A DNA stretch of 42,170 bases from Jimgerdemannia flammicorona (GCA_003990765.1 RBNJ01000094.1:1-42170), one strand, 5' to 3'. Positions 4,420 to 39,842 are shown, counted from the stretch's first letter. Numbers and translations: made by a program. Notes: generated by a model not told the origin, from the sequence alone.

Positions 4420-4506
4420 TGTAACATCAGTGTCGGGAAAAGTGCATTCACGTGGATGGGATAATCCCGTCCACGTGAATGCACTTTCCCCGACGCTGAT
4501 GTCACA
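4420..4506. repeat. Dispersed palindrome copy 1 (87 bp, centre 4463)
   Basis: TGTAACATCAGTGTCGGGAAAAGTGCATTCACGTGGATGGGAT-A-ATCCCGTCCACGTGAATGCACTTTCCCCGACGCTGATGTCACA. Confidence 0.97.
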
Positions 4507-4554
4507 AGATAAGATATAACGAATGCATTTTCGTTGAATAAATCTTCCAAAACA

Positions 4555-5530
4555 ATGACTAACCAATGTGGATGCTACTGTTTTGAAAGCAGCTACAAAC
4601 TATGTCCGATCTCCAAACCGGTCCCTCTAGGTGTTGTTCGTACTCGCGCTGGAGCCAAAGGTGAGAGTTGTGTGTTATACTATTGTCTAGCCCTTTATTT
4701 ATTTCAATACTCCAGGTGTACAACCCTATAGATATCTTGAGGTGAATACCGCAATACAACTTCTGAATGAATGACTTGGGCATGGCTGGTCCTGCAAATA
4801 CAATGTAGATCATAGGATTGAGGTATTTGTTATGATGTCAATCCGTAAATTCATGTGGTCACGAAATACTAATCCAAATGTAGATGTTCCACAAATCCAC
4901 GGGATTGTGGGAGATTTATGTCGAAGTGACTGCCAAGTCCAAATACATCACGCCAAGCAACCAAACAATAGAACACGAAGTATGTATTTAGCTTACAACA
5001 GCTTCAACTACAACCACTGCTCCATCTAACATAATCTCAGGAATGTGGTGGATTTACACAATCCTCGCGGGTAAAAGGTACAGCGATGACAAATGCTAGA
5101 AAATCGGCCAACTCTGATGCGCTAAAACGAATTGCCGCAACATTCGGCATTACCGTTGTGGGCGAATCCGGCGATAATGATAACTATGTTGTTTGTGATA
5201 CGTTACATATGGCGGAGTTCCCATGCTCACACCTCGTTAATTTAAACATAATAGATACTGATCCCACCCCCCGTCTCTCCTCGCCCAAGTCAAGGTATTT
5301 GTCTCTTTCTTTTATATGTAGCTGTTTCATTTATATCCCATTATTAAGCTATACACATATTATTTTAGGATTGAACCGTATATTGATAGTGTTCAACAAC
5401 ATAGCACACACAGTACATACAGTAAGTATATATTGTACAAAATTAATAGAGCCGTATGGATATTAATTTTCCCACCACTTTCAAAATAGAATCCGATTCA
5501 GTTGATTATATAAATTACAACTGTCAATAA
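4555..5530 (+). pseudogene. Rad52/Rad22-family single-strand annealing protein, 6 exons, one premature TGA (4772-4774)
   Basis: Exons 4555-4660, 4716-4822, 4884-4979, 5041-5294, 5369-5421, 5490-5530 with phase-consistent GT-AG introns. Protein includes VVRTRAGAKGVQPYRYLEVNTAIQLLNE*LGHGWS..GLWEIYVEVTAK..NQTIEHEECGG..AMTNARKSANSDALKRIAATFGI, matching the Rad52 N-domain pattern (R.G..G....Y......I...NE.FG..GW..HED.G.G..KARKEA.TD.LKRA...FG). Confidence 0.85.
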
Positions 5531-5616
5531 ATAATATGTTTGGACATATGATCACAAATAAAGAAGACTTATAAACAGCTTGTAATTGAACAGCTTTATA
5601 CGTTGTTCACTACAAT

Positions 5617-7179
5617 ATGTCAACTCTCGCAGAAACACTATCTATGCCATTTATGGCTTTCAAACTCAATACAACAAATCCTATGATCAGCTCAGACAAT
5701 CTCACCAAACTCATCACTAGCAATAATGATATATGGACACTGTTGCCAAAAATGTTTCAGAAGATAGAGGAATTGTATCAAATTCGCACTTTTACTGCTG
5801 ATGGTAAAGTGACCTTTAGATATGGCGGGGACACGCCTTCGATGACTATCATCGTAAATACCATGGGTGCATATCAGACAACAACCAATGCCATGTCGCC
5901 AGGTACCAACGCAATTTACCAATCTATGGTACAGAAGCCATATGCATACCCATATGAGTCCCCATTCCCGAGGACCTCTGATGGATATGACGATGACCTA
6001 TTACATATGACAATGTCTCAACCTGTTGATGACATGGACATCGATCTGGTGGAGGTTTCCGTTGAAGAATCGCTACACGAGGATTCCGCTACAGAATTGC
6101 TACACGAGGATTCCGCTGCAGAATTGCTACATGAGGTTTCCGCCACAGAATCGCTACACGAGGTTTTCCCAGCTGATACAGAATTGCTACACGAGGTTTC
6201 CCCAGCTGACGCAGAATTGCTACATGAGGTTTCCACCGCAGAATTGCTATACGAGGTTTCCGCCACAGAATTGCTACACGAGGTTTTCCCAGCTGATGCA
6301 GAATTGTTACATGAGGTTTCTGCCACAGAATTGCTACACGAGGTTTCCACCAGAGAATCGCTACACGAGGTTTTCCCGGCCGATGCAGAATCACTACACG
6401 AGATTTTCTCAGCTGACACAGAATCGCTACATGAGGTTTTCCCAGCCGCAGAATTGCTACACGAGGTTTCACAAGTCAAAACAACACCCAGACATGGGCT
6501 CAGAACTCAGAGAGAAACTGCTACCAAAAGAGCAGATGACCCAACCAGAGCACGCCATAGACGACGACATGTTACAAACGGCCGGAGACAAATTAGTTGC
6601 AATTCGAATGAGACATCTTCAGAATCTGAGACAAGAAGTGACACAACAGCAGAGGAGGAGGAGTGTTTGTAGATGCTGCAAATTTTACATGCTATATATA
6701 CACACGCCAGGTGTATAGATCCAGACCAACCATTGGCCACCAGGATACGGCCAGAGAAGTTTATCAAATTGCCCATAGTGCAATCTGCGAGGTCTATCTT
6801 GGACAATGTGATGAATTGGTATAATCAGTTAGCGTCCAAATGTATTTTGGGTAGTATAGGGTTACGCCTTTATAGTATGAGCATCTGTGTCAAATATCTA
6901 CTATATCCGACTGATCTGAACAATTATCAATTGGGGTCATGGAGGGCGGTGTCCAATCAGCTCACCATACAGTACAATCAGCGCAACGCCAACGAGCTTG
7001 GTAAGTGGATTAGGTGTGGGTGGTGGTATCTCGTCTTGGCCAAGCTCTTCAACAGTGTATCTGTTGCGGCGTCATTGTGGAGAGCCACTCATATGTCAAA
7101 GATAACAAATTCAGAATTTAATGAACTGGTGACATATCTACGAATGGAGGACTGTGTTGTAGGTATATTTTTTTTATAG
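5617..7179 (+). pseudogene. Hypothetical protein with acidic tandem repeats and C-terminal helical domain; one in-frame TAG (6670-6672)
   Basis: ORFs 5617-6672 and 6673-7179 are in the same frame, separated only by a TAG. Confidence 0.65.
6064..6472 (+). repeat. Coding minisatellite, 14 copies of E(L/S)L(H/Y)E(V/D/I) units of 27, 30 or 33 bp
   Basis: Core CAGAAT(T/C)GCTACA(C/T)GAGGTTT repeated; all unit lengths are multiples of 3. Confidence 0.95.
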
Positions 7180-7746
7180 TCATTTGGACTTTGTCATTTA
7201 TTACCAGTCCAATGTTAAATATACATTCTCCTCCCACTACTCGATTTCCATAGGCAACCCAAGCAAATACCACCTCCCCCCCCAACCATGTCGTAAGTAT
7301 ACTATATAATACGTATAGTGAGGATGATGTGTGGTCGACAGTAAAGGATTGTGTGAGTGCAGAGGATGTTGATGCAGCTAGTAGTGTTATTACATGAGTG
7401 TTGGAAGAAAACTCACTTGAACACCTACTAGCGATATACATATAATAATAATAATAAATAATAAAGTTTTAAATCTCTCTGTGGAAAACTGTAAATTTAT
7501 TACAACAATTATCACATTACTTGTGTTGGACCACAATCGATACAGAAAGTAACAGAGCTGTCGAGTCATACACGTATTTATAAAAACTATCCTCAAAACC
7601 TATTGGTGATATACCCATAGACTAGAGTTATAAAATATATCATTTTATAAAATGATCTTTTCTGCGACAAGACCCTTTTTTATGGACACGGCATGCCACA
7701 CATTTTTCACTCCTGTGATCAGCTTTGAAAGAAACTGAGAGTCTTG

Positions 7747-8850
7747 CTAAATTGTCAAACATTCAACTCCAAATAATTTTACCGGAATACATCCAAGCAC
7801 AAGTGGTATCAAGGGCTGTAGTTGTGGGGCAGACTCACCCACACGCCACATGTCAGTGTGCACAACAACTAGATTACCATGAAAGATCTGTTCGAGGATC
7901 GCATTGAATACAGAGTGTGCCACCGTGCCGAGATCTGTGTCGTGACTCTGCATAACATATTGTGGTACTTTGTTGTTAGCACAGGCCAACCACACATGAC
8001 CGCGTGCAATTTCAGGAAATGCGGCATTGTGGGGCAATTCGTTGTGGTACTCATTGTCATATGCACAGGACTCGAGCAGCTGTGGTTGTGAGCATTTGCG
8101 GACCACTGCAGTAAACAACAAAGCCATGCTACAGACAGTGCAGAATGCCAGCCCAGCCTGCAGCTGTGTATGGTACTGTGGTAGAATCATCCCATCAGGT
8201 GCCCGCGTGTATGGGACCTTAGCATCGACCAGAACAGATGCGAAGAAGTTGGGATCCTGGTCTCGAGGACACATCATCCCATCCACATTGTATCCCATCA
8301 CCACAAGTGCATCAGGTGAGTACCGACAGTGCTGTACGACCTGTAGACACGTGCCACGACCCATGATGTCACAGCAGTACTGTAGCTGCATATACGCGAA
8401 TGCCAGATCCTCTAACATCCGGCCCCATCCACACGCGCGTCTGCCAAACTCGCTGAACGCTTGTATTATGCCTGTCTTCAGGCTGACCAGGCTGCGGAAT
8501 GCCGCAGAGTTTGTAGGCGACGTTGCTGCGAGTGCATCGGAGCCTCCGAGTATGTGTCTAATCAGTTCATACCACTCGGGCGAGTGCTGCACCAGCGGCG
8601 GAAACATATTGACAAATTCGATGAGAATTTGTCGCAGCATGGCTCTAATGGGCGCTGTTGCTGTGGTGCAAAGGCAGACATTGCCAATGGTCTCCAATAT
8701 GCTGCTGTCGTCATGTGACCACCCAGACGTTGTTATCAGTGAACGCGTCTCCTGCATTAGCACCGTGAGCAGATGCTGATCGATCAGCAACAGAATCGTG
8801 TGGGGATGCACATCCAAGTTGATTGGTACGAATTTCTGCATTGCAAACAA
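7747..8850 (-). CDS. Hypothetical protein (~365 aa; may extend past the TAG at 7747 to ~7645)
   Basis: Long GC-richer ORF immediately downstream of the EME1-like gene. No motif recognised. Confidence 0.5.
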   Translation of the reverse strand: MFAMQKFVPINLDVHPHTILLLIDQHLLTVLMQETRSLITTSGWSHDDSSILETIGNVCLCTTATAPIRAMLRQILIEFVNMFPPLVQHSPEWYELIRHILGGSDALAATSPTNSAAFRSLVSLKTGIIQAFSEFGRRACGWGRMLEDLAFAYMQLQYCCDIMGRGTCLQVVQHCRYSPDALVVMGYNVDGMMCPRDQDPNFFASVLVDAKVPYTRAPDGMILPQYHTQLQAGLAFCTVCSMALLFTAVVRKCSQPQLLESCAYDNEYHNELPHNAAFPEIARGHVWLACANNKVPQYVMQSHDTDLGTVAHSVFNAILEQIFHGNLVVVHTDMWRVGESAPQLQPLIPLVLGCIPVKLFGVECLTI

Positions 8851-8868
8851 ATTTTATTATGTATGTAA

Positions 8869-9702
8869 TTAAGTTGCTTTAAATACACGTCGTACTCGAA
8901 AAACATCAAGTATGCGCTGCATGATCTTGTCATGCAATCTCGTCCGGCTGACTACTACATGCACTAGCTTCTGCCGCACGGATATGTCATTGTGAGTATC
9001 GACAAATGTGTAAAATGAATAAAGGTCATGGAATTCGGCGACAAACGCAACAGCAGTTGCATGTGATATGTCTGGAATCTGTATCAGAAAATCTCGAAAT
9101 GCATGCTGACCGAGTCGTGTCTTGGGGACATGGACTATGGCCAGATAATCCTCAGGCAATGCCTTTGACCGATCCTTTTGAGCACATTTCAGCAGCCGTG
9201 CAACTGTGGTTGCTGTGTCTGCAATTGTTGTAGTTCTACACACGACAACATCATCACAACATAACTCCAATGAGATTGTTATGTGGTCGATATCTACAGA
9301 TGCACCCTCGAACAACAGGTAGATCTGCTGATTGGGGAATCGCATTTTTAGATTGTTGACATCGGTTGTCAGCCTATCGTGTGTTGTGTAGAGAATGACA
9401 ATGACACCCTTTTGTCGTGTGTCATTGTTGTTGTCACCACAATCCCAGCAAAGTATGCAGTAGAATGATGGTGATGGCCCATCGAGTTTGCGCCATTCGA
9501 ATACATCCACGTGCACACGTATTTTCGCTTCCAGTATCGACACTGCAGGTGTGTAAAATAGAGTGGGTGTCTGTGTGTGGGCAATGGCAGTGGTAGTGGT
9601 AGCAATACCAACAATGGTTGATGACACTCGAGAGTAAAAATGGCCCCCTCTTAAAACCTCTTCAGGGGATGGAAATTCAAAGTCGTCATCATCATCCGAC
9701 AT
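8869..9702 (-). CDS. EME1/Mms4-like protein (ERCC4-type fold without catalytic motif, plus C-terminal HhH region)
   Basis: Starts MSDDDDDFEFPSPEEVL. Core LKMRFPNQQIYLLFEG..VVVCRTTTIADTATTV. C-terminal FLIQIPDISHATAVAFVAEF..L...Y..RTRLHDKIMQRILDVF matches the EME1/MUS81 HhH pattern. No ERK motif. Confidence 0.7.
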   Translation of the reverse strand: MSDDDDDFEFPSPEEVLRGGHFYSRVSSTIVGIATTTTAIAHTQTPTLFYTPAVSILEAKIRVHVDVFEWRKLDGPSPSFYCILCWDCGDNNNDTRQKGVIVILYTTHDRLTTDVNNLKMRFPNQQIYLLFEGASVDIDHITISLELCCDDVVVCRTTTIADTATTVARLLKCAQKDRSKALPEDYLAIVHVPKTRLGQHAFRDFLIQIPDISHATAVAFVAEFHDLYSFYTFVDTHNDISVRQKLVHVVVSRTRLHDKIMQRILDVFRVRRVFKAT

Positions 9703-10231
9703 CTTGTATATTGAACGACTACTAGTGATTACTGGATATATATGTGTATGTGTGTGTATTGACAAAATAGGATCGTTGACTAGACGCAAGCCATTCAACT
9801 TGTGCAGGTTATGATCGGTTCAACAGTTTATTCATTTGATAGAATGATTTGATACTACTATAAAATGGTACCACATAGACCTGTAGCCACAGCAGCTACA
9901 GCTTGTAACAATAGTAGCATTGTTGCATTTGTTGACAATGTGTGTATCATTTCATTCATGGTTAAATACACTAAGTCATTGGAGTTAATATGCTCAGGTT
10001 GTGCCATAGGGGTGTAGTGGAGACTGAGTGGTGTGAATTTATATACATACATACCATTAGTCTACATGACATACTGAGTAATATTATATAAAAATAAATA
10101 CGATGACATTATACACATATTAGATTCCAAACACGTCTTGTCCCCGACGATGGTGTCATTATAAATTTGAAATGCGGTCACAACATGTAAAGAAATATAA
10201 ACCATGGTAAACTGTCTTAAAAAGCTACAAG

Positions 10232-10696
10232 ATGGCAATACAACGGAGACAAGCGATTGTTACTGGGGTGGATTCAACAACAATCCTTCAACCAACAGAT
10301 GCAATGATGGGGTCAAAATTAGGAGACCATCTCTGCAGTCATCTTGCCACAGAACTGTTGGAGTTTCAACGACTGGATGATTTTCTGCAGGTGTTTAAAT
10401 ACAAACTCAGATGGCAAATGTCTGGTGGGAATAGGAAACCCGGTGTTATCATCATGCTAGACAAGAAGGAGTATTGGAAATTCATCTGTCGCGGTATGCA
10501 AGTTGTCGATGATCTCGCAGACCTGAAAGCGACATTTCCAGACCACTGTATATGTATAATTCTGCAGGGTTTGACTAAATCTGTAAGAATAAACCAACGG
10601 ATAGTTGACGAGTGTAATGCCCATGAAATCGTTATTGAGAGGTCAAGAAATTCTCCAATAACGATTGAACGGGTCATCCAGTATTTGGCAATGTAG
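10232..10696 (+). CDS. Second, stand-alone ERCC4/EME1-like domain protein
   Basis: KPGVIIMLD..DDLADLKATFPDHCICIILQG aligns with KGVIVILYT..DVNNLKMRFPNQQIYLLFEG of the neighbouring gene. Confidence 0.55.
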   Translation: MAIQRRQAIVTGVDSTTILQPTDAMMGSKLGDHLCSHLATELLEFQRLDDFLQVFKYKLRWQMSGGNRKPGVIIMLDKKEYWKFICRGMQVVDDLADLKATFPDHCICIILQGLTKSVRINQRIVDECNAHEIVIERSRNSPITIERVIQYLAM

Positions 10697-10792
10697 TCCA
10701 ACAATTGTATATACTATGTAATAAATGGTGTTTATACATCACAGCCTCATCATATCTCAACTGCGACACACCACGATGCGCCTTTCACAACG

Positions 10793-11335
10793 ATGTCAAT
10801 TACAACCCAATTCAAAGATGATCTGGCAGCAATAATCAACGACATAGTGCTGCACGATGCATCCGTGGTCTGTGCCAATGGGCAGGTCATCGGTGTGTAT
10901 AGTGCGGTACTTGCTGTCTGTTGTCCACTGTTCTGAACTATGTTTTATGGCAATGTACATTCCAAGCAGGTCCTGCTGGACGATGTGTCTGTCGACATGT
11001 TACACTACATCCTGCACTTCTTGCATGCTGAGCGACTGCCAAAGATCATGGATACTGACATCGCTGAACTCTATTGTGTCACAGTTCATCTAGATCTGCA
11101 CAAGCTACAAACGCAGCTTGTGGTGCGACTGATTGCCAAATTGAATGGCGAGGGTGGTAGTGTGCGTGCAAGTGAGCTTTTCGACAGGGCTATTGCATTA
11201 CGAATTGATCCAATACGTACACGCAAATTCTATGATACGCTCATCCAGGCTCTACCAGCGCAAAATATTACAACTGTCCAGTTACAGGCACTGGCGGGGT
11301 TAATCAATAATATAGGTGTGATCAGAGGACAATGA
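10793..11335 (+). pseudogene. BTB/POZ-domain protein, in-frame TGA at 10934-10936
   Basis: DLAAIINDIVLHDASVVCANGQVIGVYSAVLAVCCPLF*TMFYG..VLLDDVSVDMLHYILHFLH. Confidence 0.85.
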
Positions 11336-11586
11336 GATGTGGCAACCCAGACAAATGAAGATGGTTGATACATGTATATATTTGTATAGATCTTGTACTC
11401 TGTCTGGCTGTATGTGTGATTTAACTATCCTATTACATGTATTGCAAAACTTGTGAATCACATTTAATATACAAACTCGAGACATTGTTATGTGTCATAA
11501 CGTCCCTTGTACAATGGCGACTCGAAAATAGTAAAAGTGATATATAAAATATAAAATACAACATTTATTTGCTCCCAACGACTACC

Positions 11587-13441
11587 TTAGTTGGTATTGG
11601 TTAACGCCATCAATCCCTATACATTGCCCATGGTCTGCCACTGAATTGACTCATATCCACACAACATGCAATCATACTACACAACAACACCATCATCTGC
11701 ATAAACAAAGGCAATGCTAGCAGTGTTATCCAATACAGATAGGAATGCATCACCATGCTTGATATTATCTGCTAATATTTCATCCATTTTGTGCTCATAG
11801 ACAACACTTGATGTGTCATTCCTGTCCATATCCCAGATTCATATAGTGATACGAACAGTGTTACTTGCTTATTCTAGGGTGTGTATATCGATTGTCATGA
11901 TGTATGTTTTGTTATTTCTGGTAATAAAGAGTACTTCCATTGGCATAGTATTGGTCCCCGTCCATCCTACCGCAGTGAACACTGGACGCAAATCGGTGGT
12001 TGACAGTACTACTAATTTACTGCCGTCGTGGAATGCAATGTGGGTTTTGTCCAGGTTCATGGCAATTTTACAGAACATAGCCATTGACAGTCTAAACGTC
12101 TTGCCCTTGTCATGGTTGTCAGCTACGATCATCGTCGCCTGGTCATTAGCACCATACCAAATAAATGCACCCTTTCCGACTTGTACAAGCGGCAGTCTGT
12201 CACGTCTGGTTGTATCAGAACATCCAATCCCAAAATGGGCGACGATGTCATTGTTGTGGATGGATGATTTGATAACTCCAAGTGTGTTAAGATCTACAAT
12301 ATAGAATGTTGTCCAACTGACAACGATCGCCTGTATACCATCACCCAGCATAGCAATGTCGCCTGTAATTGGCTCATCACTATCATCAAGAAGAATCGAT
12401 GGTTGGTTACCAAACCATCGATATTTGGTTTCAAAATGTATAAGTATCGATCCTGTGGTAGCAAAGAGTTGTGATATCTACCTAGCAAAATTGCCGAGTT
12501 TGGTGTGTCTGATATTGCCATGCTGATTGTATCATATATGTTCATATCAGAGTCAAATATAGTAGTAGTCGGTAATGCGAATTCTTTGCAAGTAATTGAG
12601 GTCTTAAACATGGGTGATTTTGTTGATATATCCCATATAGACACACAGCCATCACCGCCACTGAAATAGACGGCCGTCATACAATCGTGTGTTGTGGTAA
12701 AATATCCAATTTGCATTTGGTGTGGGCTGGTTGTATCCTTAACAGGAGGTCCAAAATTACATGGTCCGGTGAATTGCGTCTGTATAGTGTTGCTGGGGAC
12801 ATCATCGAGGACTGTAATTTTCACATCGCCATGGTTTCCAGCAAAGTATATAACTGGATAAATAAGACATCGAGGCTTGTTTTTAAAAATTTCACAGATC
12901 TCTCCATTGATATTGCTTTATAGAAATGTAGAGCTGCTTGAATCATTGCAACTCATGCCAAACCCAATGGTGAGGTTGATTGGAAACATGTTGTAAGTAG
13001 TGCCATCAAAGTCTAAATGACCTGTTTTAAAGTCAAATTGATGAATCCATCCACGAACTAACCAAGCGAAAAACAGGAATATTATTATCAAATATATTAA
13101 AATTCATGCTCTAATGGGTTGCATCTAGTAATTACCAATTTCTGGCACAGAACATTTGGCTATAAACCACCGTTTGGTAACCACTCCTAAAATAACACCT
13201 CTGTAGAGAAGATAAGGTGTTATTAAATTATTCAAAGCTGATGTACTACATATATTGTCCACCAAACATACTGGATTAATTGTTCTTCTGTTAGCGTAAT
13301 TGTAAAGTAAAATGCCGTCAGAGGCTCTGGAAGATTTAGTTTTGTGTGTGGGGGTTTTGGTTTTTGAATTAGTTACACGATGCTATCTGTAATCGTGTAC
13401 ACTTCACCGACATCGAAGAGGGTTATTGAAGTGGGTTCCAT
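11587..13441 (-). pseudogene. Degraded beta-propeller (WD40-like) protein, possibly with N-terminal F-box; introns, stops and a frameshift
   Basis: ORF pieces 12294-12824 (YFSGGDGCVSIWDI) and 11869-12351 are beta-strand rich. Upstream exon from ATG 13441 contains LNLPEPLTAFYF. Exact gene model uncertain. Confidence 0.45.
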
Positions 13442-13717
13442 GGTAGTTGGTTGGCATTACAAATTGTGTATTCGACTGGCTATTTATGCCATGACATACT
13501 GTAACAATGATGGTCCAAAACACTCACACGTCCCCAACGCTGACGTCATACACATTATTTTGCTACAGATTTAACTACAACAATTTACATCAATTCCAAC
13601 AATATCCAATTCTGCAGAACTCTGGGTGGTATTATGCGATGTTCTGAGAGATGTTTAATTGTGTGTTAGGGATTAGTTACCAAATTGTAAAGGCAGGTCT
13701 ATCCGTTGACACCTAAG

Positions 13718-13795
13718 TGTGATGTTGTCGTTGGGGAAAGTACATTCACGTGGACAGGATTATCCCATCCACGTGAATGCACTTTCCCCGACGCT
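13718..13795. repeat. Dispersed palindrome copy 2 (centre 13761; right arm shorter)
   Basis: TGTGATGTTGTCGTTGGGGAAAGTACATTCACGTGGACAGGAT-T-ATCCCATCCACGTGAATGCACTTTCCCCGACGCT. Confidence 0.97.
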
Positions 13796-14006
13796 ATTTA
13801 ATTAATTATATTTGAAATTGGTAATATAGATGTGATATTAAATAGCATATATGATATCATTGCAAGAGCATGTTGTAATTGATATCGTATTTAGCCAGCT
13901 AAACTATCCTTAATGTGTAAACAGACGGTAACCAATGACTCGGACTTGAGGTTGTACTAATTGTACAATATAACAATCCCTGCCCCAACTATAGTGACAA
14001 ACAAAA

Positions 14007-14771
14007 ATGACACACTCCGCTACACAAGAGACAGTCTATGAAATGCTACTTCCGGGGTATGCCAAGGCAGCTCTACAGTCGTTGATTGTATGGGTGCAAT
14101 ACCAAGAGCTGCACCATGAGGATGGTTGTTGTGTACGCATCGTTCTATATGGGAGTGGCAAGGCCACGTTGGAGCTAGAATATTTCGACGGCACCTGTAA
14201 TTCGTACACAGTATCGGCTGCCGGATATGTCCCGCTGTTGAGATGTAATTTATGTAAATGCACCGAAGCCTATTCAACTGCAGACAATGGCATACCAAAA
14301 CATGGCTCACGACTGGAATGTGGTCATTTTATATACACGGATTGTATGAAGTCCATCTGGATCAACAATGGTCGCTGTCTCGATTGCAATCAACAGCTTG
14401 TACAAGGAGATCCAACGCATGTCACCCTAATTCAACAAAATAAGTTTCTCAGAATGATACTGAAGCATCAAAATATCGAATTTCCTGACCCCTTCCACCA
14501 TGACGAATGGTGGCATAAGTTCCGAATGCGCCACCTGATGGGAGCAGACAATGACGTCGCCACCACTGCTGTGGTCGTTGCCTCATCCACAACAACTACA
14601 GCGACGAACAGCAGTGAGCTGTCGTCACCACACATACAGCAACAAATATACTCTCCATCATGTAAGTCTATCGTTGGCGAGCCACAGGAGTCCAAAGGCA
14701 AAGGTAGCAAACTATCCACACCCACACCCACACCACCGTCTGGTGACAAGGACGCAGACGCAGTGCCATAA
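14007..14771 (+). CDS. RING-H2-like zinc-finger protein (putative E3 ligase; one His ligand is Tyr)
   Basis: CNLC...RLECGHFIYTDCMKSIW..GRCLDC. Confidence 0.75.
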   Translation: MTHSATQETVYEMLLPGYAKAALQSLIVWVQYQELHHEDGCCVRIVLYGSGKATLELEYFDGTCNSYTVSAAGYVPLLRCNLCKCTEAYSTADNGIPKHGSRLECGHFIYTDCMKSIWINNGRCLDCNQQLVQGDPTHVTLIQQNKFLRMILKHQNIEFPDPFHHDEWWHKFRMRHLMGADNDVATTAVVVASSTTTTATNSSELSSPHIQQQIYSPSCKSIVGEPQESKGKGSKLSTPTPTPPSGDKDADAVP

Positions 14772-14904
14772 ATTTCACTGGTGCGATCTGCAACCCAGGG
14801 CTGTGCCCCTCCAGAATATGGAGACAAATACGAGCATATTCCACTCAGCAGGCCAAAAAAGATCGATATTATCGGTGCATTACAATGCACAATGCATGTG
14901 AAGA

Positions 14905-15446
14905 ATGGACCCATTCAGCGAGTTGATCTCACCACAGGTGACTGCCCCGCAAACTGAGCAACAGTGGCAGCTCAGTTTGAGGCAGCAACAGATACAACAG
15001 CTGCCAAGGCGATTATTGCATACAAACACGCCGGCAGACACATTAATGAATACACCAAAACCCTCATCTGTTCCAACGATCGGAATGCTGTGATATCTGC
15101 AAACAAGTGGTACAAACATGAACTGTCGGCTCTGAATTTATCCGTTAACATCAACCATATCCATATTGCGCGAACAGTATATCAGCTATTCTGTGATATC
15201 GATGATGAGATATTAGGCAGGCTGCACGGCATCACAATTGGCAGACTCAAAGGACTCACACACCACGACAGATTACGTATATGTAATCAGATCAAGACAC
15301 TAATGATGACAGCCAAATCCTCTGCCAAGCCTGCCTCTGACATGGATGTCGACATGGAGCTCAATGTGCATTTCGACAGCCTCCCCTTCACAACTACACA
15401 GACTGTCACAACACTGTATACAACTGTCATAGGCATAGTGGCATAG
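14905..15446 (+). pseudogene. Small helical hypothetical protein, probably frameshifted near 14960
   Basis: ATG at 14905 is in one frame and the body is in ORF 14964-15446, containing IARTVYQLF..ILGRLHGITIGRLKGLT. Confidence 0.5.
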
Positions 15447-15907
15447 GCTGCTATTGTTTGGAAAGATATTGAGTTATTTGGGATATTATCTATTATAATG
15501 GCCAAAATCTGTACTTGAAATATTACGTTGGCAAAATAAATAACTATTAAAATCTGTTTGTTTAAGACATTATTTATTTTGAGTGTGATCACAAGCTCCT
15601 AGATGTAACTAATAATGTTCAGAAAATGGAATTTCATTAGGAGATGTCTATATATTGATCATAAATAAAATTCTGCCTGCTGAACTCTGTTTATTGAATA
15701 TGAGATTAAATTGATATGCATTTTATATAATTCATCTTATAATAGTCATAGTATTATCCTATTTTATAGTAACGAATATCATACCTCGTCTTATTCGAAT
15801 TATATAATATGTTTACAATTCATACATATTTATAAATAAAACATAGTTATTTGGCTTAAAATGCATCACAACATAGTTCATATATCATAGATGTAATTCA
15901 CGAGCAG

Positions 15908-17164
15908 TTACATTAAATATGCTCCAAATTCAGCAGAACAGCGATTCAACTGTTGCACTTTCAACATACCCATTAGATGTATGTTGTAGTGGTCTGCGAT
16001 CTTGGTGTTCTTGAGATAGCGATAGTGATTTACAAGCCATTTCAACACAGATGCTGTGTTTGCACTGTCGGTGTTTATGCTGGTGTTTAGCAAATCTGAT
16101 AGCAACTGTTCCAGTAGCTCACCAATCTGCTGGATCGATTGTTGGGTGTTACAGTTGGTGAGCACAGTGCAGAGCACGTTCATGACTCGAAGTTCCCTGG
16201 TAAAGGTTGCATTGGCCACCGTCTGCAATGTCGACACCAGCCGAGTGCGGAACTGAAGCACTGGTCGATGGGTATTGTCATGTAAACGTAAAGCACTGTC
16301 CATGGTATCGATCGCGCATGGGTCGCAGTCCTGGGCAACCTGTAACACAGTCCAGTATATTGCGAGTGTGATGCTGATCTGTATGTGTATGCCAGGTTCT
16401 TCGCGCACTTGTGCCAGCGCCTGTCGCCTATATTCGTCACATTTTGCAAGGCGATCTGTGTGGTAGTAGAACACACACAGATCTACTAATGTGTTATCAT
16501 ATGGCTCTTGTTTGGACAGTTTGTCCTGCATAGACCATACCAAAAGGCACTCTGTATCGTCGTTCTTCCTTTGTCGTGTGTATATTATGGCAAGGCAGGT
16601 TGTGATGTGCGGAATCAGTGGATGGTTTATATGGTGTGCGTTGCTGTCCAGCAACATCAGGGCATTCTGGAGGCGGACTGAGGCATCCGCATCGCAACCA
16701 GGTTGTTCAGCAAGCATGCAGCCATAGTTTGCAAACACCTCCACCTTTACAAGGGGGGACATAGTGGTAATATTTGTCAGCATCTCAAGATACTGGAAGA
16801 TGGCACCAGCCTTGACTACATCTCCATCCAGTCACCAGGTATTGGCCATCATAATTCGCACAGCTACAATAAAATGGTTGGTACGTGGATAGCTGATCCG
16901 CAGAATTGCGACCACATAGTTCCACATTTCTCGTGCAAAAGAATATAATCTACGACTACCGAACAGCTCTGCTATGTCCCGCAGTACAAAAGCTGTTATC
17001 TGTCCACCCTGCTGTCTGATTATAGTCCTTATTTCAGCATACACAGCTGCATTGCATTTGCTCAGTTTTGTAAAGGAGTCATTGATACACTGTTGTAGGA
17101 CTTGTGGATTCGACAGCGGATTCGACAGCCACCATAGAGGTGGCATAATTGAGTTGGAATACAT
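15908..17164 (-). pseudogene. TPR-repeat-like protein, in-frame TGA at 16832-16834
   Basis: ORFs 16832-17164 and 15908-16783 are in the same frame. HPLIPHITTCLAIIYTRQRKNDDTECLL and NTASVLKWLVNHYRYL resemble kinesin-light-chain-type TPRs. Confidence 0.6.
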
Positions 17165-17347
17165 AAAACACCCTTCGGATAATAAATATATATATCAGGA
17201 TTATGTTACATGGTACTAGTATTAGATTAATCATATGTTTGTGACTACCATCATTATATCTAGTCTCATTATTATTAAAACGGTTTGCTACATCCTAACA
17301 TATATATCCCAAGATGATTAAACAACACAAATCATAACTCTATTAAA

Positions 17348-20300
17348 ATGCCAAATAATAAGCAACCGCAACAATTTGATGATAGTAAAAACAGACGGAT
17401 ACGACACAACTCCAACCAACCACCGCTGCTACTACACCGCCTGCATTGGATGTGCCCACAGGCTCCGATCATAAACTGTGAGAGCGATGAACTCATGTTT
17501 CAGCAGATGGATATTCGCGTAGAGTTTTGCAATGGCGAGGAGATCGTGATCATGATTGGAACAACTATTGAGGGGTATAGTGTTATGTGTCGGGTGTGCG
17601 GATTTAGACTATATTTTTATATCTGCGCGCCCAACACTGTCCAACGGGACAATCTACCATTGTTGGTAGCATGGCTGCAATGGTATGTAAATGTGTCTGT
17701 GTGCAACTGTAGGATTGTTGATAGTAGAGACATATACAACTACACAGGGTCAGGCTTGGAACCATTCATTAGGTTCACCACTGCAACGGACGCCACTAGA
17801 CAACAACTGGTGAATTTTATACAGAATTGAACAGTCTTTGGTCCGCCCAGTTGCACCATTGTGCGTGATGGCAAATTGTATAAAAGCGATGTGAGTCCGG
17901 ATCTGCGATTCATGGTCGACCACACGATAACCAGGGCCGGATGGGTGCGAATCCCTGCTGGAAATTACATGTTGTGTGTCTCACGGACATCACACTGTCG
18001 GTATGAAGTCGAAACAGACGTCAACGCAATCCAGAGCGTGCCCTACAACTCCTGTGACGCGGGTTCATGCATCGCGCCCTTGCGGGTACTGAGCTTCGAT
18101 ATCGAGTGTCGCGGTCACAAGGGCATTTTTCCGGAGCCCGAACATGACCCTGTCATACAGATTGGCTGTGCTGTGGCTGTGTTGGGTGTGGCAGACCCAC
18201 CCAAACGCGTTGTGTTTGTGCTGGGGGGGTGCACCATGCCACTCGACGATTGCGAAGTGCGGGTACACACCTCTGAGAAGGCACTCCTGCTCGACTGGTA
18301 CCGGTTTGTGGTGTACGAGGTCGATCCAGACGTGCTGACAGGCTACATGATTACCAAGTTCGACATCCCATATCTGATTAACCGTGTGTGTGCATTGGGT
18401 ATTGAGCATACATTCGCACAGCTGGGCCAGATTGTCGACAGGGAAACCACAATCAACCAGAATGTTACAAAGACCAAGGCATATAGTATCAACAACACAA
18501 ACAAAATCGACATCGCGGGCCATCTACTGCATGATATCTATGATATGGTCTGTCTCGATTACAAGCTCCCTGGTGGAAACAAACTCAATGACATCTGCAA
18601 GCACTACCTTGATGGTGAAATGAAGGTGGACCTACACCACAGCATGATCACGCCGCTGCACGACGGCAGTAGCGATGACAGACGAAAACTAGCCGAGTAC
18701 TGCATATAGGACGCGACACTACCATTACTACTGATGGCGCGATTTGCGAGTATGACTAAGTATATTGAGCTGGCGTGCATCACAGGTGTACCATTCGCAT
18801 ATTTGTTACTGCACAGCCAGCAGATCCGGGCCATGTCACAATTCTATCGAAAGACACGTGAACTGAACTATCTCATTCCTGTATCCGATCCTGTCAAGGG
18901 TGTTATCGCAAATGGGCCACAGTACCAGGGCGCGAAGGTGCTCGACGCGACCCCTGGCTACTACCAAGTGCCAATCTGCATGCTTGACTACAGCTCGCTG
19001 TACCCGACCATCATGATCGACAACAATCTGTGCTACAGCACAATCGTCGACACTACCACGATTGTGCGTCTGCAGCTTGTCAAGGATGTAGACTACATTA
19101 CAATCAGGGGTAACGAAGCTGATGCCACAACCGACCATCACTTTGTAACCCCATTACAATGCAGGGGCGTCGTGCCACAGATTCTTACAACACTACTTGA
19201 CTGCAGGAACGCGGTCAAGAAAGAGCTTAAAGACGAAGGCGACGCTCTGAAACGTGCAATTTTAGATGCGCGCCAGCAGGCAATGAAGCTCTGTGCAAAC
19301 TCACTCTACGAGCTGACAGGCGTTGCCGGCGGAAAGCTTGCAAGTCTTGCAGTCGCCACCAGTGTTACAGCGAGTGGTCAAGGCATGATCAAACGGGCGA
19401 AATCGATGATTGAATTTACCTTTACCATCACAAAAGGCGAGAAACACGATGCCCAGGTGGTGTATGGCGACACAGACTCTGTGATGGTTAATTTTGGACC
19501 AATATCAGTTGCAGACACAATCGAACTCAGCAAACGTGCTGCAGGATTGCTGTCCAACATACCCGGTCATCGCGAGACGTTGAACTTCGAATGGGCATTC
19601 ATGCCATTCCTGCTTGTTGGTAAAAAGTGCTATGCAGGGCTGACGGGGGTCAATAACAGTTTGGTCATCAAAGGCATCCAGACTGTAAAGCACGACACAA
19701 GTGAGTATATTGCCACGACCGTTGAACGGTGTCTTGAGATCCTGTTTGCCAGCCCACAAGGTGGGCTCGATGCAATGACAATGCACATCAAGGACAAGAT
19801 CTGGGTGCTATTGCAAGATGAGCTTGATCCCGCTGTATTTGCTATTACAAAACAGTGGAATGCATCTCTGGTGTCGATGGCCCCAGGCCGACATGCACCG
19901 GGCCTAACAAATGGCACAGGCCCGCGCCAGAGAATCATGAAGGCTATGAGTTCAAAAATCCAACTACTGCTACAAGCAGATGTTCAACAGCAGCAGCCAC
20001 ACATCGCTGCTACCATCAGGAGTAGGTTAGTTGATGCGCCCGAATGTGGTGATCATGTCACATATGTGATTACAGCCAAAGCTGGAGGTGAGTGAGTGAA
20101 ATATACTAGTGTGATTATATATGAATATATATATATATGTGTATACTAATATTCAATAGTAAAATGTATAAGCAACAGGGCTGTACTGCTCCAGAGTGTG
20201 CTCGAGGATTGTCTGCCGATAGATCAGGACTACTACCTCCAGAGTTTGATACGACTACTGCTGACGATGTTCTCACCCGTGTTTGGTGGTGAAAAACGAA

Positions 20301-20392
20301 TGCATCGTGAAATATGTAAGTTTGCAGAATTTCGCAAATTCGCATGTATTTCATTCACTAATAATAATAATCATCATCAACATCACTGGTAA
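17348..20392 (+). pseudogene. Family B DNA polymerase, Pol-delta-like catalytic subunit; two in-frame stops (17828 TGA, 18707 TAG), one intron 20088-20159
   Basis: ExoI LSFDIECRGHKGIFPEPEHDPVIQI, ExoII PDVLTGYMITKFDIPYL, ExoIII YCI*DA, region II YQGAKVL..LDYSSLYPTIMIDNNLCYST, region III QQAMKLCANSLYELTG, region I YGDTDSVMV, and C-terminal VLEDCLPIDQDYYL. All in one frame. Confidence 0.96.
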
Positions 20393-20788
20393 TAGTCATG
20401 GGTGACCATATGCATAGTGGCGGTCAGTCTTCGCTCAGAGATTTCTGGACAACTACTTCCTCTCAATAGTTGTAATCATACCACAGGTTTAAACTTCACG
20501 GCCTGAGGATAACATATTTGTACTATTATATTGAAAGTGTGAGGAAATGGTAGTGATTATCTAATATCTATATTGTTGTTACATTTCATTCATAAGAGTC
20601 TTCTGACTATTCACGACCAAGACCAGTCTTCCCTCTATTGTTTTGCATATGTATAACAAATTTGAGATATATAAAATATCGTTGAAATAATTATCGAACT
20701 CACTAATATAAACATTTGCAAATAATGGATATTTATTTGTTCATTTATAACATCTCTTGATAATACAAATTTATTCGAGATCCAAACT

Positions 20789-21202
20789 CTATTCATTTAC
20801 TATTGAGATATACCACTGTGCATTGTTATCTTCCTTAGATGTGAATATACAGTTGCCATCATCACTGCGTGCAATAATATCCCTATTGTAGGAGGCAGGC
20901 ACAATTTTCACAGCATCTCCTGAGATGATAGGGTATCCGTGTCCAAACAGGGTTGTTTTTTCCAACACCCATTTATCCAAATCATTCAACGTTTTTGGTG
21001 CTAATCCACACAGAACAGAAATAGGAAATGAAACAGTTTCACTGCGATAAAGATAGATCCCATCCTTAACAATATGGATGCACTCGCCATATAGGATTCC
21101 CGAGGAGTGTGGGGTTGTGTAATGCAGAGTCCATGGTATTTTGTCATTTGTAGTTGTTATGCGTGGATGTGTTGGGTCAAACTTGGTTTCCGATACAGTC
21201 AC
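20789..21202 (-). CDS. Hypothetical beta-rich protein (possible beta-trefoil); probable upstream exon near 21269-21348
   Basis: 137-codon ORF preceded by an intron-like sequence (CTAAC..TAG) and ending in AQWYI. The upstream exon phase does not fit, so the model is uncertain. Confidence 0.35.
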   Translation of the reverse strand: MTVSETKFDPTHPRITTTNDKIPWTLHYTTPHSSGILYGECIHIVKDGIYLYRSETVSFPISVLCGLAPKTLNDLDKWVLEKTTLFGHGYPIISGDAVKIVPASYNRDIIARSDDGNCIFTSKEDNNAQWYISIVNE

Positions 21203-21442
21203 TATTGATACAATAATCAGTTAGTAAAACAAAATGGAATTTATATCTTTAAGTTGCATTATACATACAGTATATCACACTCTGGATTTTGCAAGTTTAG
21301 TGGTTGTGTAGTAAAATACACCTTGTTACCAGAGCTAATTTGTGCCATAGAGGTTGATAGTAGCTCAGAGCATAGGTAGGCGAGAACTACCTTAGATATG
21401 AAATACTTTAATGACATACTGAGTAATTATAAAGTGTGTCAT

Positions 21443-21525
21443 TCACGTCATCGTCAGGGAAAGTGCATTTATGTGGATGGGATTATCCCGTCCACATGAA
21501 TGCACTTTCCCCGACAATGACGTGA
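21443..21525. repeat. Dispersed palindrome copy 3 (83 bp, centre 21484)
   Basis: TCACGTCATCGTCAGGGAAAGTGCATTTATGTGGATGGGAT-T-ATCCCGTCCACATGAATGCACTTTCCCCGACAATGACGTGA. Confidence 0.97.
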
Positions 21526-21772
21526 CCGCCTTGTGTGCCTAATGGCTGTTGAGTTATCACTATTATCCTTCTTTAGAAGTACTATCATTCACGTACAACA
21601 CATATTGGGAAGATCAACATTGCTATTAAGACATGTGGCGAATGCTTTGCATTTGTGTCTATACATAGTACCGAGTTATATAGTTATACCATAGTATTGA
21701 CAGTCCCTAAGCTGACCATGGTTTACAATAAATAGCAGGTGTAGATATGCCGGAATCAACACTAACACCACC

Positions 21773-22503
21773 ATGCAAACCTCAGTGTGCCTCCTAGCTG
21801 AAATCTGTGCCTTCATCATCAACGATTTTAAATATATAGATCTGCTTCACTGCATGGATATTTCACCCACATTCTACTCTGAGGCAACTAGACATCTATG
21901 CATACAGCATGGCTTTGATCAAGACTCTGACCCAGAACTCTATCGGGCATTGAGGGCAGTCATTATACAAACAAAGGTCAGCATGCAGGGGGTAATGAAG
22001 CAGCGTTTGAATGCCTTTCTTGATCGCATGGTGTGCGAACAGTCATTTTGCGATGTACAAGTGACGAGGCAGTCGCAGCTGCCATGAGGATCATCTATAC
22101 GTTTGGGCCATTTGTGATGTAACTATACAAATGCGACCCATCAATGTACAGCCGAATTCGGTGGTGTCTGTACCACATAGCCAACCTCAAGGCGTTTGCT
22201 GTCGCCAGGTACCGCATCACCCATGAAAAATGCCACCTAGAGTATGACTTTGTTGATATACACAAACAAATTAACGCCAACAACAATCTGTCATTTTGGC
22301 TGTACTTTTTGGGTGATACTGAAACATCACAAATTATGTGTGCTAAATATAGAATAGTTCAGAGCTCCCCAGAATACATTTTCGGGAAGAGTGTTGATGT
22401 ATCAGAACTAGTATTTGATTGTGAGAGAACACTCCGCCGTATTACCCAATTGATTGCTCTTATTGACAAAAAAATGACAACCATCATATCAAACAATGAA
22501 TGA
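21773..22503 (+). pseudogene. F-box-like protein, frameshifted
   Basis: CLLAEICAFIINDFKYIDLLHCMDISPTFYSEATRHL fits an F-box (P>L). Continuation in ORF 22144-22503 is in another frame. Confidence 0.55.
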
Positions 22504-22701
22504 TGGTGGAGATTTGACAGAGTGTGTATATATGTACCTGAATGTCATTCTCTATCTCACTGTCGCAATGGACAAAGCATCATCACAAGGTACTTGTGTG
22601 AGATTTGTATCTGAACTGCATAGTATATATGTTAAGATATATATTTATAAATATATATAATATTCCCACATTTAGTAGTACCATCTACATTTGAACTGCT
22701 A

Positions 22702-23928
22702 GTGCTCCCACTCAAAATTATTCGGGAGATCTGGAAATGCATACAGACCGACCTCTCATTTGACCAGCTTGATTATCTGGCATTTTTGTTAGTTTCCTTT
22801 ACATGGTGGAATGCTACTCAGGATATTCAACTACCAAATCGTGTCTGGGAACTCAGTACATCACCGGTGCATCTTCAGAGGATTCTCGAAGAGAACAAGC
22901 ATCATAGATTCGGCTACAACACACAGATTAGCAGACATGCGATTGACCTCACTGGTATAATGCAAGATCACGATGTGTGTACAAGGGTGTGGCTCGATGC
23001 GCAGGTGGCCGTCCTGCAGATGCTGCCGAATTTACAGGTGTTGACAATCTCATGGACAACTCCTATCAGGCGGGAGCTGTATGCGATTGTGCAGCAATAT
23101 TTCAGTAGCATCGTCAATGCATGTCACACACATCTGACCCATCTGGAGTTCCACGGCCCACCCACTGGAGACTCTGTCAAACTTCCACACTCACTTATTG
23201 ATTCTTTTGCAAGCAAGCTGCGATGTCTCGAATTCCACAATCTTCCATTTCCCAACACCCGCGATGGTGTGCTAACCAATTGCATGAACTTGCAGGAGTT
23301 TACAATCTGCAATATTCAAACTGATTTGGATCCATCCATTGTTGTCCACTGGCCAAATCTCCAATGTCTTACCATTACCCAACATCCAGATGACCCGCAT
23401 GACCCCTACAGCTCTGATATCTTTCATCCGACAATTAGTGATGAAAATCAGCAGTATCTTTTGGAGAATCTTACAGGGTGCATCCATCTGCATCATTTTA
23501 AAATGTACTATGCTGGTGCATTCGCCGCCATGTGGGACATCGGACCATCCAGCAAATCAATTTGCGACCTTGTCGTGCATTGACAGTTTGATATATTCTG
23601 CATCTACAGCTAATATATTGACAATGATGTCATCTTAGCATTGGCAATAACCCAGCAGCACTATCTTCATTACCTCAAGCTAGGAAATAATTGCTATTCG
23701 GATCAGATGGATACCTGAGAAGCCAACTGGGGCTGGCCAGAATTGGAAGAACTGGATTTCGAGCATTTTAATGTGTCCGAGTCGTTTCTGGTCCAAGTTA
23801 TACAAAGTTGTACAAGGTTGACACATGTACGGCCATTGATTTCGGAAGATGCCCCAGATACAGCATTGCGCAATCTGGGGTTTGTTAATGAGTCCACCAG
23901 CGGATTCTATATGCATCATATTGTGTAA
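22702..23928 (+). pseudogene. F-box/LRR protein with three in-frame stops from 23581 onward
   Basis: LPLKIIREIW..LLVSFTWWNA F-box. LRR-type LPNLQVLTI, CMNLQEFTI, WPNLQCLTI, WPELEELDF, CTRLTHV continue in the same frame to TAA 23926-23928. Confidence 0.8.
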
Positions 23929-24229
23929 TATATACCCAATAAATATATTTGTCGAGTGATACTCATGGCCATGAGTCCATATTTGGTATTTTACAACCAG
24001 AGTTTATTGAACAGATATGAAATGTGTCTGACACAGTGTTAATGAATTTTTGGTGTTAAATATAATTTACTACAAGTATACCTACATCTATATACACAAA
24101 CTAAACTTCTGAAACATCGGATTACATTGGGAAATTAGCCAGAATACATTCGATGAGTTGTAGATAAATCATGACTGCTTTTCATGTGGTGCACCGAGTC
24201 TGGACTCGATGCTGTATTGAGTGTGTCAT

Positions 24230-24312
24230 CCATGTCATCGTTGGGGAAAGTGCATTCACGTGGATGGGATTATCCCATCTACGTGAATGCACTTTTCCCA
24301 ACAATGACATGG
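24230..24312. repeat. Dispersed palindrome copy 4 (83 bp, centre 24271)
   Basis: CCATGTCATCGTTGGGGAAAGTGCATTCACGTGGATGGGAT-T-ATCCCATCTACGTGAATGCACTTTTCCCAACAATGACATGG. Confidence 0.97.
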
Positions 24313-24575: not shown

Positions 24576-24986
24576 ATGAAGAAACTACCGCAGTCTGTCA
24601 AACAACCACGTCAAACCAATGAGACCAAACAGTCTGCTGTAAGTAGAGGTATTAGTCCTGTTTAGTGCTACATGTCATACACACACACACACACACTGCT
24701 AAATCCGGATTTGTGCATTCTCCAGAACTGTATTGCCACAAGAAAAAGTAGGATGCGAATAAAGCAATGTACTCAAGAACAGAATAAACATATTGGAGTT
24801 CTGGAAGCCAAGATTATAGATCTTCTCAAAAAGAATGAAGAGTATCGTATACAGTTATCGACTGTGTTGACAGAAAATCATCTGTTTAAAACAACTATAA
24901 TGCCAATTGTCAAACATATTGTATTTGATCTCGAGAGAGATCAGGTTCCATCCCCATGTGACATGGCGCTGTTTGGGTTGTATTAG
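24576..24986 (+). CDS. Small bZIP transcription factor (2 exons; intron 24639-24725)
   Basis: Exon 1 MKKLPQSVKQPRQTNETKQSA, phase-0 GTAAGT..CAG intron, then NCIATRKSRMRIK (N-x7-R basic motif) and a heptad zipper LEAKIIDLLKKNEEYRIQLSTVLTENHLF. Confidence 0.75.
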
Positions 24987-25043
24987 GATAAATGTCAAAA
25001 TAAAATGGTATAACCCATTGGACAAATACTCTTAAACTATACA

Positions 25044-30062: not shown

Positions 30063-30073
30063 AGTTGGAAGAG

Positions 30074-30123
30074 GTGGCAGTGGTGGTGGTGGTGGTGGTG
30101 GTGGCGGTGGTGGCGGCGGTGGT
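30074..30123. repeat. (GGT/GGC)n microsatellite just upstream of the recombinase ATG
   Basis: About 16 trinucleotide units. Confidence 0.95.
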
Positions 30124-30158
30124 AGTAAAGAGTAAACAACTATCCTTGTGGAAATAAA

Positions 30159-36906: not shown

Positions 36907-36910
36907 ATAG

Positions 36911-39742: not shown

Positions 39743-39842
39743 TGATTCAAGATGAATCCCTCACTTTCAAGCTGAAAAACGAACAACTCCCACAACAACT
39801 ACCCTGACTACAAGAGTCACCCCTGCAAGAATTCAAGACAAG

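Follow-up and report, generated by a model that had tools for sequence, protein, structure and literature searches.

The window, that is, the whole stretch of DNA analysed here, comprises 42,170 bases from Jimgerdemannia flammicorona (GCA_003990765.1, RBNJ01000094.1:1-42170). Between about 2.9 and 30.2 kb it carries what looks like an undescribed kind of element of ~26 kb, the boundaries and mobility of which are presumed. Its genes include those for a probable tyrosine recombinase, a family B polymerase, a Rad52-like protein, and a RecE/YqaJ-like exonuclease, besides several small genes of regulatory type. Four palindromes of 80-87 bp, each with a one-nucleotide centre, are scattered through the gaps between these genes and are considered first. 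They are genuine and non-random, and their structure is richer than was thought at first.

Anatomy and decay of the palindromes

Palindrome 1 (4420..4506) has arms of 43 nt (4420-4462 and 4464-4506) that are 91% complementary and flank an A at 4463. The arms of palindrome 2 (13718..13797) are 32 nt long and 88% complementary (13729-13760 and 13762-13793), with a T at 13761. Palindrome 3 lies at 21443-21525 and palindrome 4 at 24230-24312, both with 41-nt arms: those of the former (21443-21483 and 21485-21525) are 90% complementary around a T at 21484, and those of the latter (24230-24270 and 24272-24312) are 93% complementary around a T at 24271. None of the four is assigned to a strand. All lie where a preliminary description of this DNA had placed them, and of the two bases that it proposed for the centre, A or T, only copy 1 has the A. 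Copies 3 and 4 have about 15 nt in common to the left of the palindrome, on that side only, and with this extension they span 21428..21525 and 24215..24312. Palindrome 2 is self-complementary over 13729-13793; its left outer arm (13718-13728) is a decayed form of the outer box of copy 1, and its right outer arm is lost after about 13797. The preliminary description attributed self-complementary outer arms to copies 1, 3, and 4.

A half-site profile made from the eight arms and run against the whole window found exactly these eight arms (E 6e-15 to 5e-12), and the next match had an E value of 0.11; the proposal that no copy occurs outside the element is true for this window only. Folded as single-stranded DNA, the four copies reach -28 to -42 kcal/mol (z -9.5 to -14), and for no copy did any of 200 shuffles fold as stably. 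Elsewhere in the window, local inverted repeats reach at most 27 nt (78%), so the palindromes are by far the longest. Together these values exceed what chance would give. A degenerate pattern of the palindrome core had no matches in viral and metagenome collections, a result that is uninformative as neither collection contains fungal genomes. A profile of peptides read through the palindromes had four matches at E ≤ 0.001 among 1.84 billion representative proteins, in proteins of 601-1991 amino acids; each match consists of 4-9 short segments that cover 8-12 profile positions apiece. These were read as repetitive matches rather than copies, and the search is no evidence that copies are absent.

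Short palindromic units of this kind could be hairpin (foldback) miniature inverted-repeat transposable elements (MITEs), which would have inserted four times in one burst into the gaps of the element and then decayed; partial modules found elsewhere in the element (see below) would then be truncated copies. Like known hairpin or foldback MITEs, the palindromes are short, non-coding, and fully self-complementary, with near-identical ancestral copies near genes, and MITEs commonly insert near genes. The unit is discrete (~85-97 bp), the hairpin is strong, and the copies form two subfamilies, 1/2 and 3/4. Apart from the ~15 nt that copies 3 and 4 have in common, the flanks beyond ±43 nt are unrelated between copies (best score 25, compared with a 95th percentile of 24 for the shuffled null), which is also as expected for a MITE and rules out segmental duplication of the palindrome flanks. 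However, there is no target site duplication (TSD) above chance: the best flanking direct repeats are 3, 3, 5, and 4 nt, with a slack of ±6 nt, and 3-4 nt is the commonest length at 500 random positions, in agreement with the preliminary description. Nor are the termini sharp. From copy 1 to copy 4 the arms measure 43, 32, 41, and 41 nt, and copies 1/2 differ from copies 3/4 in their outer boxes. Conservation peaks at the centre of the palindrome and drops outward to a minimum at the ends. With no TSD above the null, unrelated flanks, variable ends, and a conserved centre, the features argue collectively against a transposon, and a MITE is considered rather unlikely. If the palindromes are a MITE, the finding is an ordinary one.

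The centre is also informative with respect to recombination or resolution sites, which might serve the tyrosine recombinase of the element or a hairpin-telomere resolvase. A probable tyrosine recombinase is encoded at 28.3-30.2 kb, and recombinase sites have dyad symmetry. Sites of the lox, FRT, and dif type have arms of 11-13 bp and an asymmetric spacer of 6-8 bp, whereas the present arms of 41-43 nt meet at a single nucleotide, and with so short a centre a recombinase site is unlikely. Recombination between four internal sites, which are in mixed contexts, would break up the element or invert parts of it, and no copy lies at either presumed end beside the recombinase gene. Cryptons are reported to lack terminal inverted repeats (PMC13465315), which also counts against such a site. 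A function in recombination is very improbable.

Decay was assessed over 32 nt of each of the eight arms, with the right arm of copy 1 as the CpG-intact core. All 20 changes from this core are G:C>A:T, 15 of them in CpG, and 15 of 32 CpGs (47%) are lost. Relative to the majority core, 18 of 18 differences are transitions. The suggestion that core mismatches are almost all C>T or G>A is therefore correct with either reference. The same change is present in both arms of one copy three times, compared with 2.6 expected under random dealing (P 0.52), and the mean distance between arms is 3.5 within a copy and 3.75 between copies, which gives a star-like pattern. Arms resemble each other no more within a copy than across copies, so the eight arms have drifted independently from one sequence. 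Eight arms equidistant from one ancestral sequence are what a MITE burst would leave. Ongoing compensatory maintenance of the core is rejected on both the matched changes and the distances, and the structure-level maintenance proposed earlier stands just as a past trace in the outer arm, where copy 1 differs from copies 3/4 by two transversions that are mirrored in both arms (copy 2 is unmirrored at one). These mirrored transversions are the sole pointer to past symmetry.

Mismatches between the arms, read on the plus strand, are 7 G-T, 9 A-C, and 3 of other types. There is no strand bias, so neither strand's hairpin has been spared, and strand-specific selection on the hairpin is ruled out. 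This bears on the possibility that the palindromes act as a transcribed RNA hairpin, which could terminate transcripts, signal their processing, or be a precursor of small RNAs. The stability of the hairpins is very high and copy 1 begins 9 nt past the stop of the upstream PP2C-like frame, but the other three copies are not beside the 3' end of an upstream plus-strand open reading frame (ORF), and Rfam 15 had no match in the whole window at the gathering score. Given the lack of both strand bias and an Rfam match, an RNA hairpin is a most unlikely explanation. A tRNA search of the window found none.

The ratio of observed to expected CpG is 0.70 for the element as compared with 1.14 for the UDP-glycosyltransferase gene that flanks it, and it falls to 0.13-0.33 in the long terminal repeat (LTR) retrotransposon at the right end of the window. 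The loss of CpG in the palindromes is of the same order as the element-wide depletion, and because of this similarity the data fit palindromes that predate the silencing of the element. Cytosine methylation is the presumed cause of the CpG decay. As all changes are G:C>A:T, mostly in CpG, and of the same kind in eight arms, the pattern provides an internal clock and points to methylation of cytosines in the silenced elements of Endogonales.

Boxes, solo modules, and gene context

When an arm is numbered outward from the centre, it consists of an inner CACGTG box (9-14), a CCCCGACG block (25-32), a 2-nt linker, and an outer box with an ACGT core (34-41). The outer box of copies 1/2 is TGACGTCA or a transition-decayed form of it, and copies 3/4 have the variant ATGACGTGA. 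CACGTG and TGACGTCA-like boxes are found in every arm, either intact or altered by transitions only, with TGATGTCA as an example of a decayed form. As CACGTG and TGACGTCA are each palindromic themselves, the full unit presents four dyad-symmetric sites with an ACGT core. Sites of this type are bound by dimeric bZIP or bHLH proteins.

The outer part of the arm is not confined to the palindromes. At three mismatches or fewer, the outer 17-nt module has five matches in the window, compared with 0.05 expected, and none of 100 shuffles reached five. Two of the five are outside the palindromes, at 10142-10158 and 13532-13548, and each belongs to a longer arm-like solo module on the plus strand. The first (10132..10158) reads CACGTC, a 4-nt linker, CCCCGACG, AT, and GGTGTCA; it is followed by TATAAAT and then, 73 nt on, by the ATG at 10232 of a BTB-like frame that has two in-frame stops. 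The second (13526..13549), about 170 nt to the left of palindrome 2, has CACGTC joined directly to CCCCAACG, followed by CT and GACGTCA. The linker between CACGTC and the module is thus 4 nt and 0 nt in the solo modules, whereas it is 11 nt in the palindromes. Linkers of 0, 4, and 11 nt point to a motif grammar rather than to copies of one unit, and they are not explained by truncating one MITE. A palindrome would then be the module of outer and inner boxes doubled head-to-head, the symmetric form of the solo modules. In addition, the 17-mer ATGACATACTGAGTAAT is found on the plus strand at 10066..10082, just upstream of the solo module at 10132, and in an identical copy at 21411..21427, with its end 15 nt to the left of palindrome 3. 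Of this 17-mer, 12 nt are seen again at 13490, upstream of the second solo module (13526). A separate 17-mer upstream of one palindrome and one solo module is a further point against a MITE. Known hairpin or foldback MITEs differ from the present sequences in having a TSD and in their ends, which here are variable around a conserved centre, and partial modules with other linkers in promoter-like gaps are likewise unlike them.

Long ORFs leave 22-35% of 2884-30400 free, and the four palindromes and two solo modules are all within this fraction (P ~0.003-0.016 for four sites); the earlier observation that the copies are confined to intergenic gaps has held up. Palindrome 1 starts 9 nt past the stop of the PP2C-like frame and ends 48 nt before the ATG at 4555 of the Rad52-like gene. 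Palindrome 2 ends 209 nt before the ATG at 14007 of a Cys/His-rich, RING-like ORF, palindrome 3 ends 247 nt before the ATG at 21773, and palindrome 4 ends 263 nt before the ATG at 24576 of the bZIP-like gene. The preliminary description had placed each copy upstream of a plus-strand gene start, for Rad52, RING, F-box, and bZIP proteins respectively. Start codons do follow, 48-263 nt on, but among the assignments only the Rad52-like gene is supported by Pfam, in scans of 28 ATG-started and 106 stop-to-stop ORFs of the window; the bZIP match is below the cut-off, and the RING and F-box calls have no Pfam match.

Regulatory function and known counterparts

Cis-regulatory modules owned by the element are the favoured explanation: the linkers vary as in a motif grammar, the setting resembles that of promoters, the outer ends are fuzzy, and no TSD is present. 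The palindromes would be relics of promoter/enhancer modules acting in cis, similar to the homologous regions (hrs) of baculoviruses and possibly bound by a bZIP-like protein that the element itself encodes; this reading has about an even chance of being correct. The anatomy, the box content, the solo modules, the placement in ORF-free gaps, and the pattern of decay are seen directly in the sequence, and from them we infer protein binding, enhancer activity, and the identity of the binder. In a live element, the modules may have recruited dimeric bZIP or bHLH factors and so driven the flanking genes, possibly in both directions, with a mode of action resembling that of hr enhancers. One candidate binder is the small bZIP-like protein whose gene starts 263 nt past copy 4; the other candidates are host factors. 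After silencing, the eight arms would have decayed independently by cytosine deamination, mainly at CpG. The preliminary description had offered hr-like origins or enhancers, recombination sites, and a hairpin MITE side by side; the ACGT boxes, solo modules, ORF-free gaps, and missing TSD favour the enhancer side of that proposal, and the 1-nt centre makes the recombinase side unlikely.

Several observations weigh against regulatory modules. There is no window-wide enrichment of the boxes, with 12 occurrences of CACGTG compared with 7.6 expected and 15 of TGACGT compared with 17.3 expected. Distances to start codons are spread widely, from 48 to 263 nt, and were taken from hand-made gene models. 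To the left of copies 2-4, neither an ATG nor a family match supports the minus-strand ORFs, so that a divergent-promoter layout is no more than possible. The evidence from intergenic placement is partly circular because insertion itself would break an ORF, and a burst of MITE insertions would likewise leave once-identical copies with star-like decay. Finally, the bZIP call is weak: the match to PF07716 has an E value of 0.0053 and 17.3 bits, compared with a cut-off of 22.3, and the best solved relative of the protein is a zipper-only match with an E value of 0.39.

Baculovirus hrs are described as dispersed, palindrome-bearing enhancers and origins with the host-factor motifs TGA(TG/CA)TCA, of the CRE-like (cyclic AMP response element) or TRE-like type, and CANNTG; an hr consists of 1-8 tandem units of ~70 bp, every unit contains an imperfect palindrome of 30 bp, and the motifs are between the palindromes (PMC13513840). 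The present palindromes are similar in that they are homologous, non-coding, and dispersed, at 4.4, 13.7, 21.4, and 24.2 kb, between the genes of one DNA element, and their ACGT boxes (CACGTG and TGACGTCA) parallel the CRE-like (bZIP) and CANNTG (E-box) motifs. In contrast to hrs, they are single palindromes of 80-87 bp with no tandem array at any of the four copies, as judged by TRF and a repeat search of the window, and the boxes are inside the arms. There is no sequence similarity, the Pfam scans found no IE-1-like protein, the host is a fungus, and any viral nature of the carrier is hypothetical. With the tandem architecture of 70-bp units and 30-bp palindromes absent, a tandem hr-type array and membership of the hr family are both ruled out.

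Baculovirus hrs act as origins (PMC13513840), and the main role of the present palindromes could likewise be as replication origins, that is, cruciform-prone start sites with AT-rich flanks for the element's own polymerase. In favour of this, the element has genes for a family B polymerase, a Rad52-like annealase, and a RecE/YqaJ-like exonuclease, and the palindromes are long and stable enough for extrusion. The oriL and oriS palindromes of herpes simplex virus (HSV) are models for such origins. However, a Pol-delta-like enzyme requires a primer, and no primase, helicase, or origin-binding protein was found in the Pfam scans or in PHROGs scans of 33 ORFs. Four origins in 20 kb would be a high number, and sequence cannot separate an origin from an enhancer. 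Origins are an improbable explanation for the main role of these palindromes.

Herpesviruses are a second point of comparison. Their lytic origins include palindromes, as in oriL and oriS of HSV, and can involve a viral bZIP protein, as with Zta and oriLyt of Epstein-Barr virus. The element is similar in having its own family B polymerase, possibly a bZIP protein, and palindromic or ACGT-type sites between genes. It differs in that scans of the window found no herpesvirus hallmark genes, the polymerase is nearest to cellular Pol delta, and the bZIP call is weak. The carrier also resembles Crypton- and Starship-type elements, with a probable DUF3435-like recombinase gene at one end, inward transcription, and cargo genes behind. 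Cryptons occur in Mucoromycota and are described as simple, carrying a recombinase gene and one further gene at most (PMC13465315). Unlike these, the carrier has many more genes, including a family B polymerase.

A broader proposal joins the enhancer and origin functions, with the palindromes as hr-type elements of both kinds in an undescribed fungal self-replicating element or virus-like integrant, read by its own small bZIP protein. In such a class, a Crypton-like tyrosine recombinase would occur together with a Pol-delta-like polymerase and an exonuclease/annealase pair. This proposal is doubtful; if true, it would be the first hr-like system outside the large DNA viruses of arthropods. If the palindromes are, more simply, regulatory modules of the element, then they and the adjoining bZIP-like gene of ~107 codons would form a ready-made cis/trans pair, with an 87-bp module of known box types, from an undescribed fungal mobile element or virus-like integrant. 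We know of no control elements described for such elements in early-diverging fungi.

The carrier element and its genes

The carrier element may itself be a more novel object than its palindromes. Its Pol-delta-like family B DNA polymerase (17318..20092, plus strand; PF03104 4e-44, PF00136 3e-77) is a single intronless frame of ~925 codons with in-frame stops at 17828 (TGA) and 18707 (TAG). The closest solved relative is Pol delta (E 1e-80), compared with 5e-24 for herpesvirus polymerases. No loci related to the polymerase were confirmed in the viral and metagenome collections. A second polymerase fragment, 86% identical, is present on another contig of J. flammicorona (Endogonales), and the element family therefore has at least two copies.

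The Rad52-like gene (4555..5463, plus strand) matches PF04098 with 22.2 bits, above the cut-off of 20.3, and is in ORF pieces at 4513-4728, 4775-5026, and 5035-5463. The RecE/YqaJ-like exonuclease ORF (7750..8853, minus strand) has matches to PF09588 (E 0.005) and phrog_434 (E 1.6e-4) and is in frame with the ORF at 8872-9819; the RecE-like match was the only one among the 33 ORFs scanned with PHROGs, and a search for homologues of this ORF found none. The probable Crypton/DUF3435-like tyrosine recombinase (28330..30150, minus strand) is split by AT-rich introns and matches PF11917 with an E value of 0.0036, below the cut-off. A protein atlas assigned it to a DUF3435 cluster with a score of 0.96 and 174 shared features. 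When compared with the R...H-x-x-R...Y tetrad, it has a box II of HRSAA...LYH...MYY with a terminal Y, and the position of the box I Arg is a Trp. A word search for homologues of the recombinase exon, which covered longer lengths only, found none.

The small regulatory-type genes of the carrier are bZIP-, Myb-, BTB-, RING-, and F-box-like. The bZIP-like gene (24576..24983, plus strand; ~107 codons) has a first exon at 24576-24638, a GTAAGT...CAG intron at 24639-24725, and a second exon at 24726-24983, in which a basic-region signature, NCIATRKSRMRIKQ (NCIATRKSR, for the pattern N-x2-A-x3-S/C-R), and a heptad zipper were recognized by eye. The Myb-like protein is encoded at 27566-27766 on the minus strand. 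The Pfam calls of regulatory type, for Myb (E 1.3e-7), BTB, and bZIP, are weak, and the RING-like and F-box-like calls are patterns seen by eye that have no Pfam match at E ≤ 0.05. An atlas look-up of the ORF at 15911-16831 gave TPR-like leads only, with low recognition value. Introns of the spliceosomal type are present in at least two genes of the element, the bZIP-like gene (24639-24725) and the recombinase (28300-30150, several AT-rich gaps), and the polymerase has none.

Six regions, 17318-20092, 10211-11332, 3670-4407, 5590-7176, 7750-9819, and 15911-17194, are interrupted by in-frame stops only, with no frameshifts. As these stops separate ORFs that are in frame with each other, this copy of the element is, judging by its sequence, a dead, pseudogenised relic, broken by point mutations rather than by insertions or deletions. 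Breakage by stops alone fits decay by transitions, the same process as in the palindromes. The PP2C-like frame at 3670-4407 (PF00481, E 2.8e-6) has three in-frame stops and could be either cargo or a decayed duplicate, and for this reason the left boundary of the element is uncertain.

Searches of the literature on Jimgerdemannia viruses and on endogenous viruses of Mucoromycota, by titles and the starts of abstracts, found nothing on this element, and a search of the same scope on tyrosine recombinases, family B polymerases, and Cryptons found no Crypton-like element with a family B polymerase.

Several other repeats are present in the window. Three tandem 45-nt units at 26342-26472, each with a G5...C5 inverted repeat, are in the gap downstream of the ORF at 25014-26090. 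Two in-frame coding tandem repeats are inside long plus-strand ORFs: one at 6025-6475 has a 27/33-nt period, ~14 copies, and ELLHEVS-like peptides, and the other at 25266-25527 has a 30-nt period and ~6 copies. The regions 39756-42170 and 34001-38000 take in a gag (zf-CCHC) like that of LTR retrotransposons and a dUTPase frame at the right end, which have the very low CpG ratio of 0.13-0.33 given above, together with AT-rich stretches of ~21% G+C that adjoin these frames.

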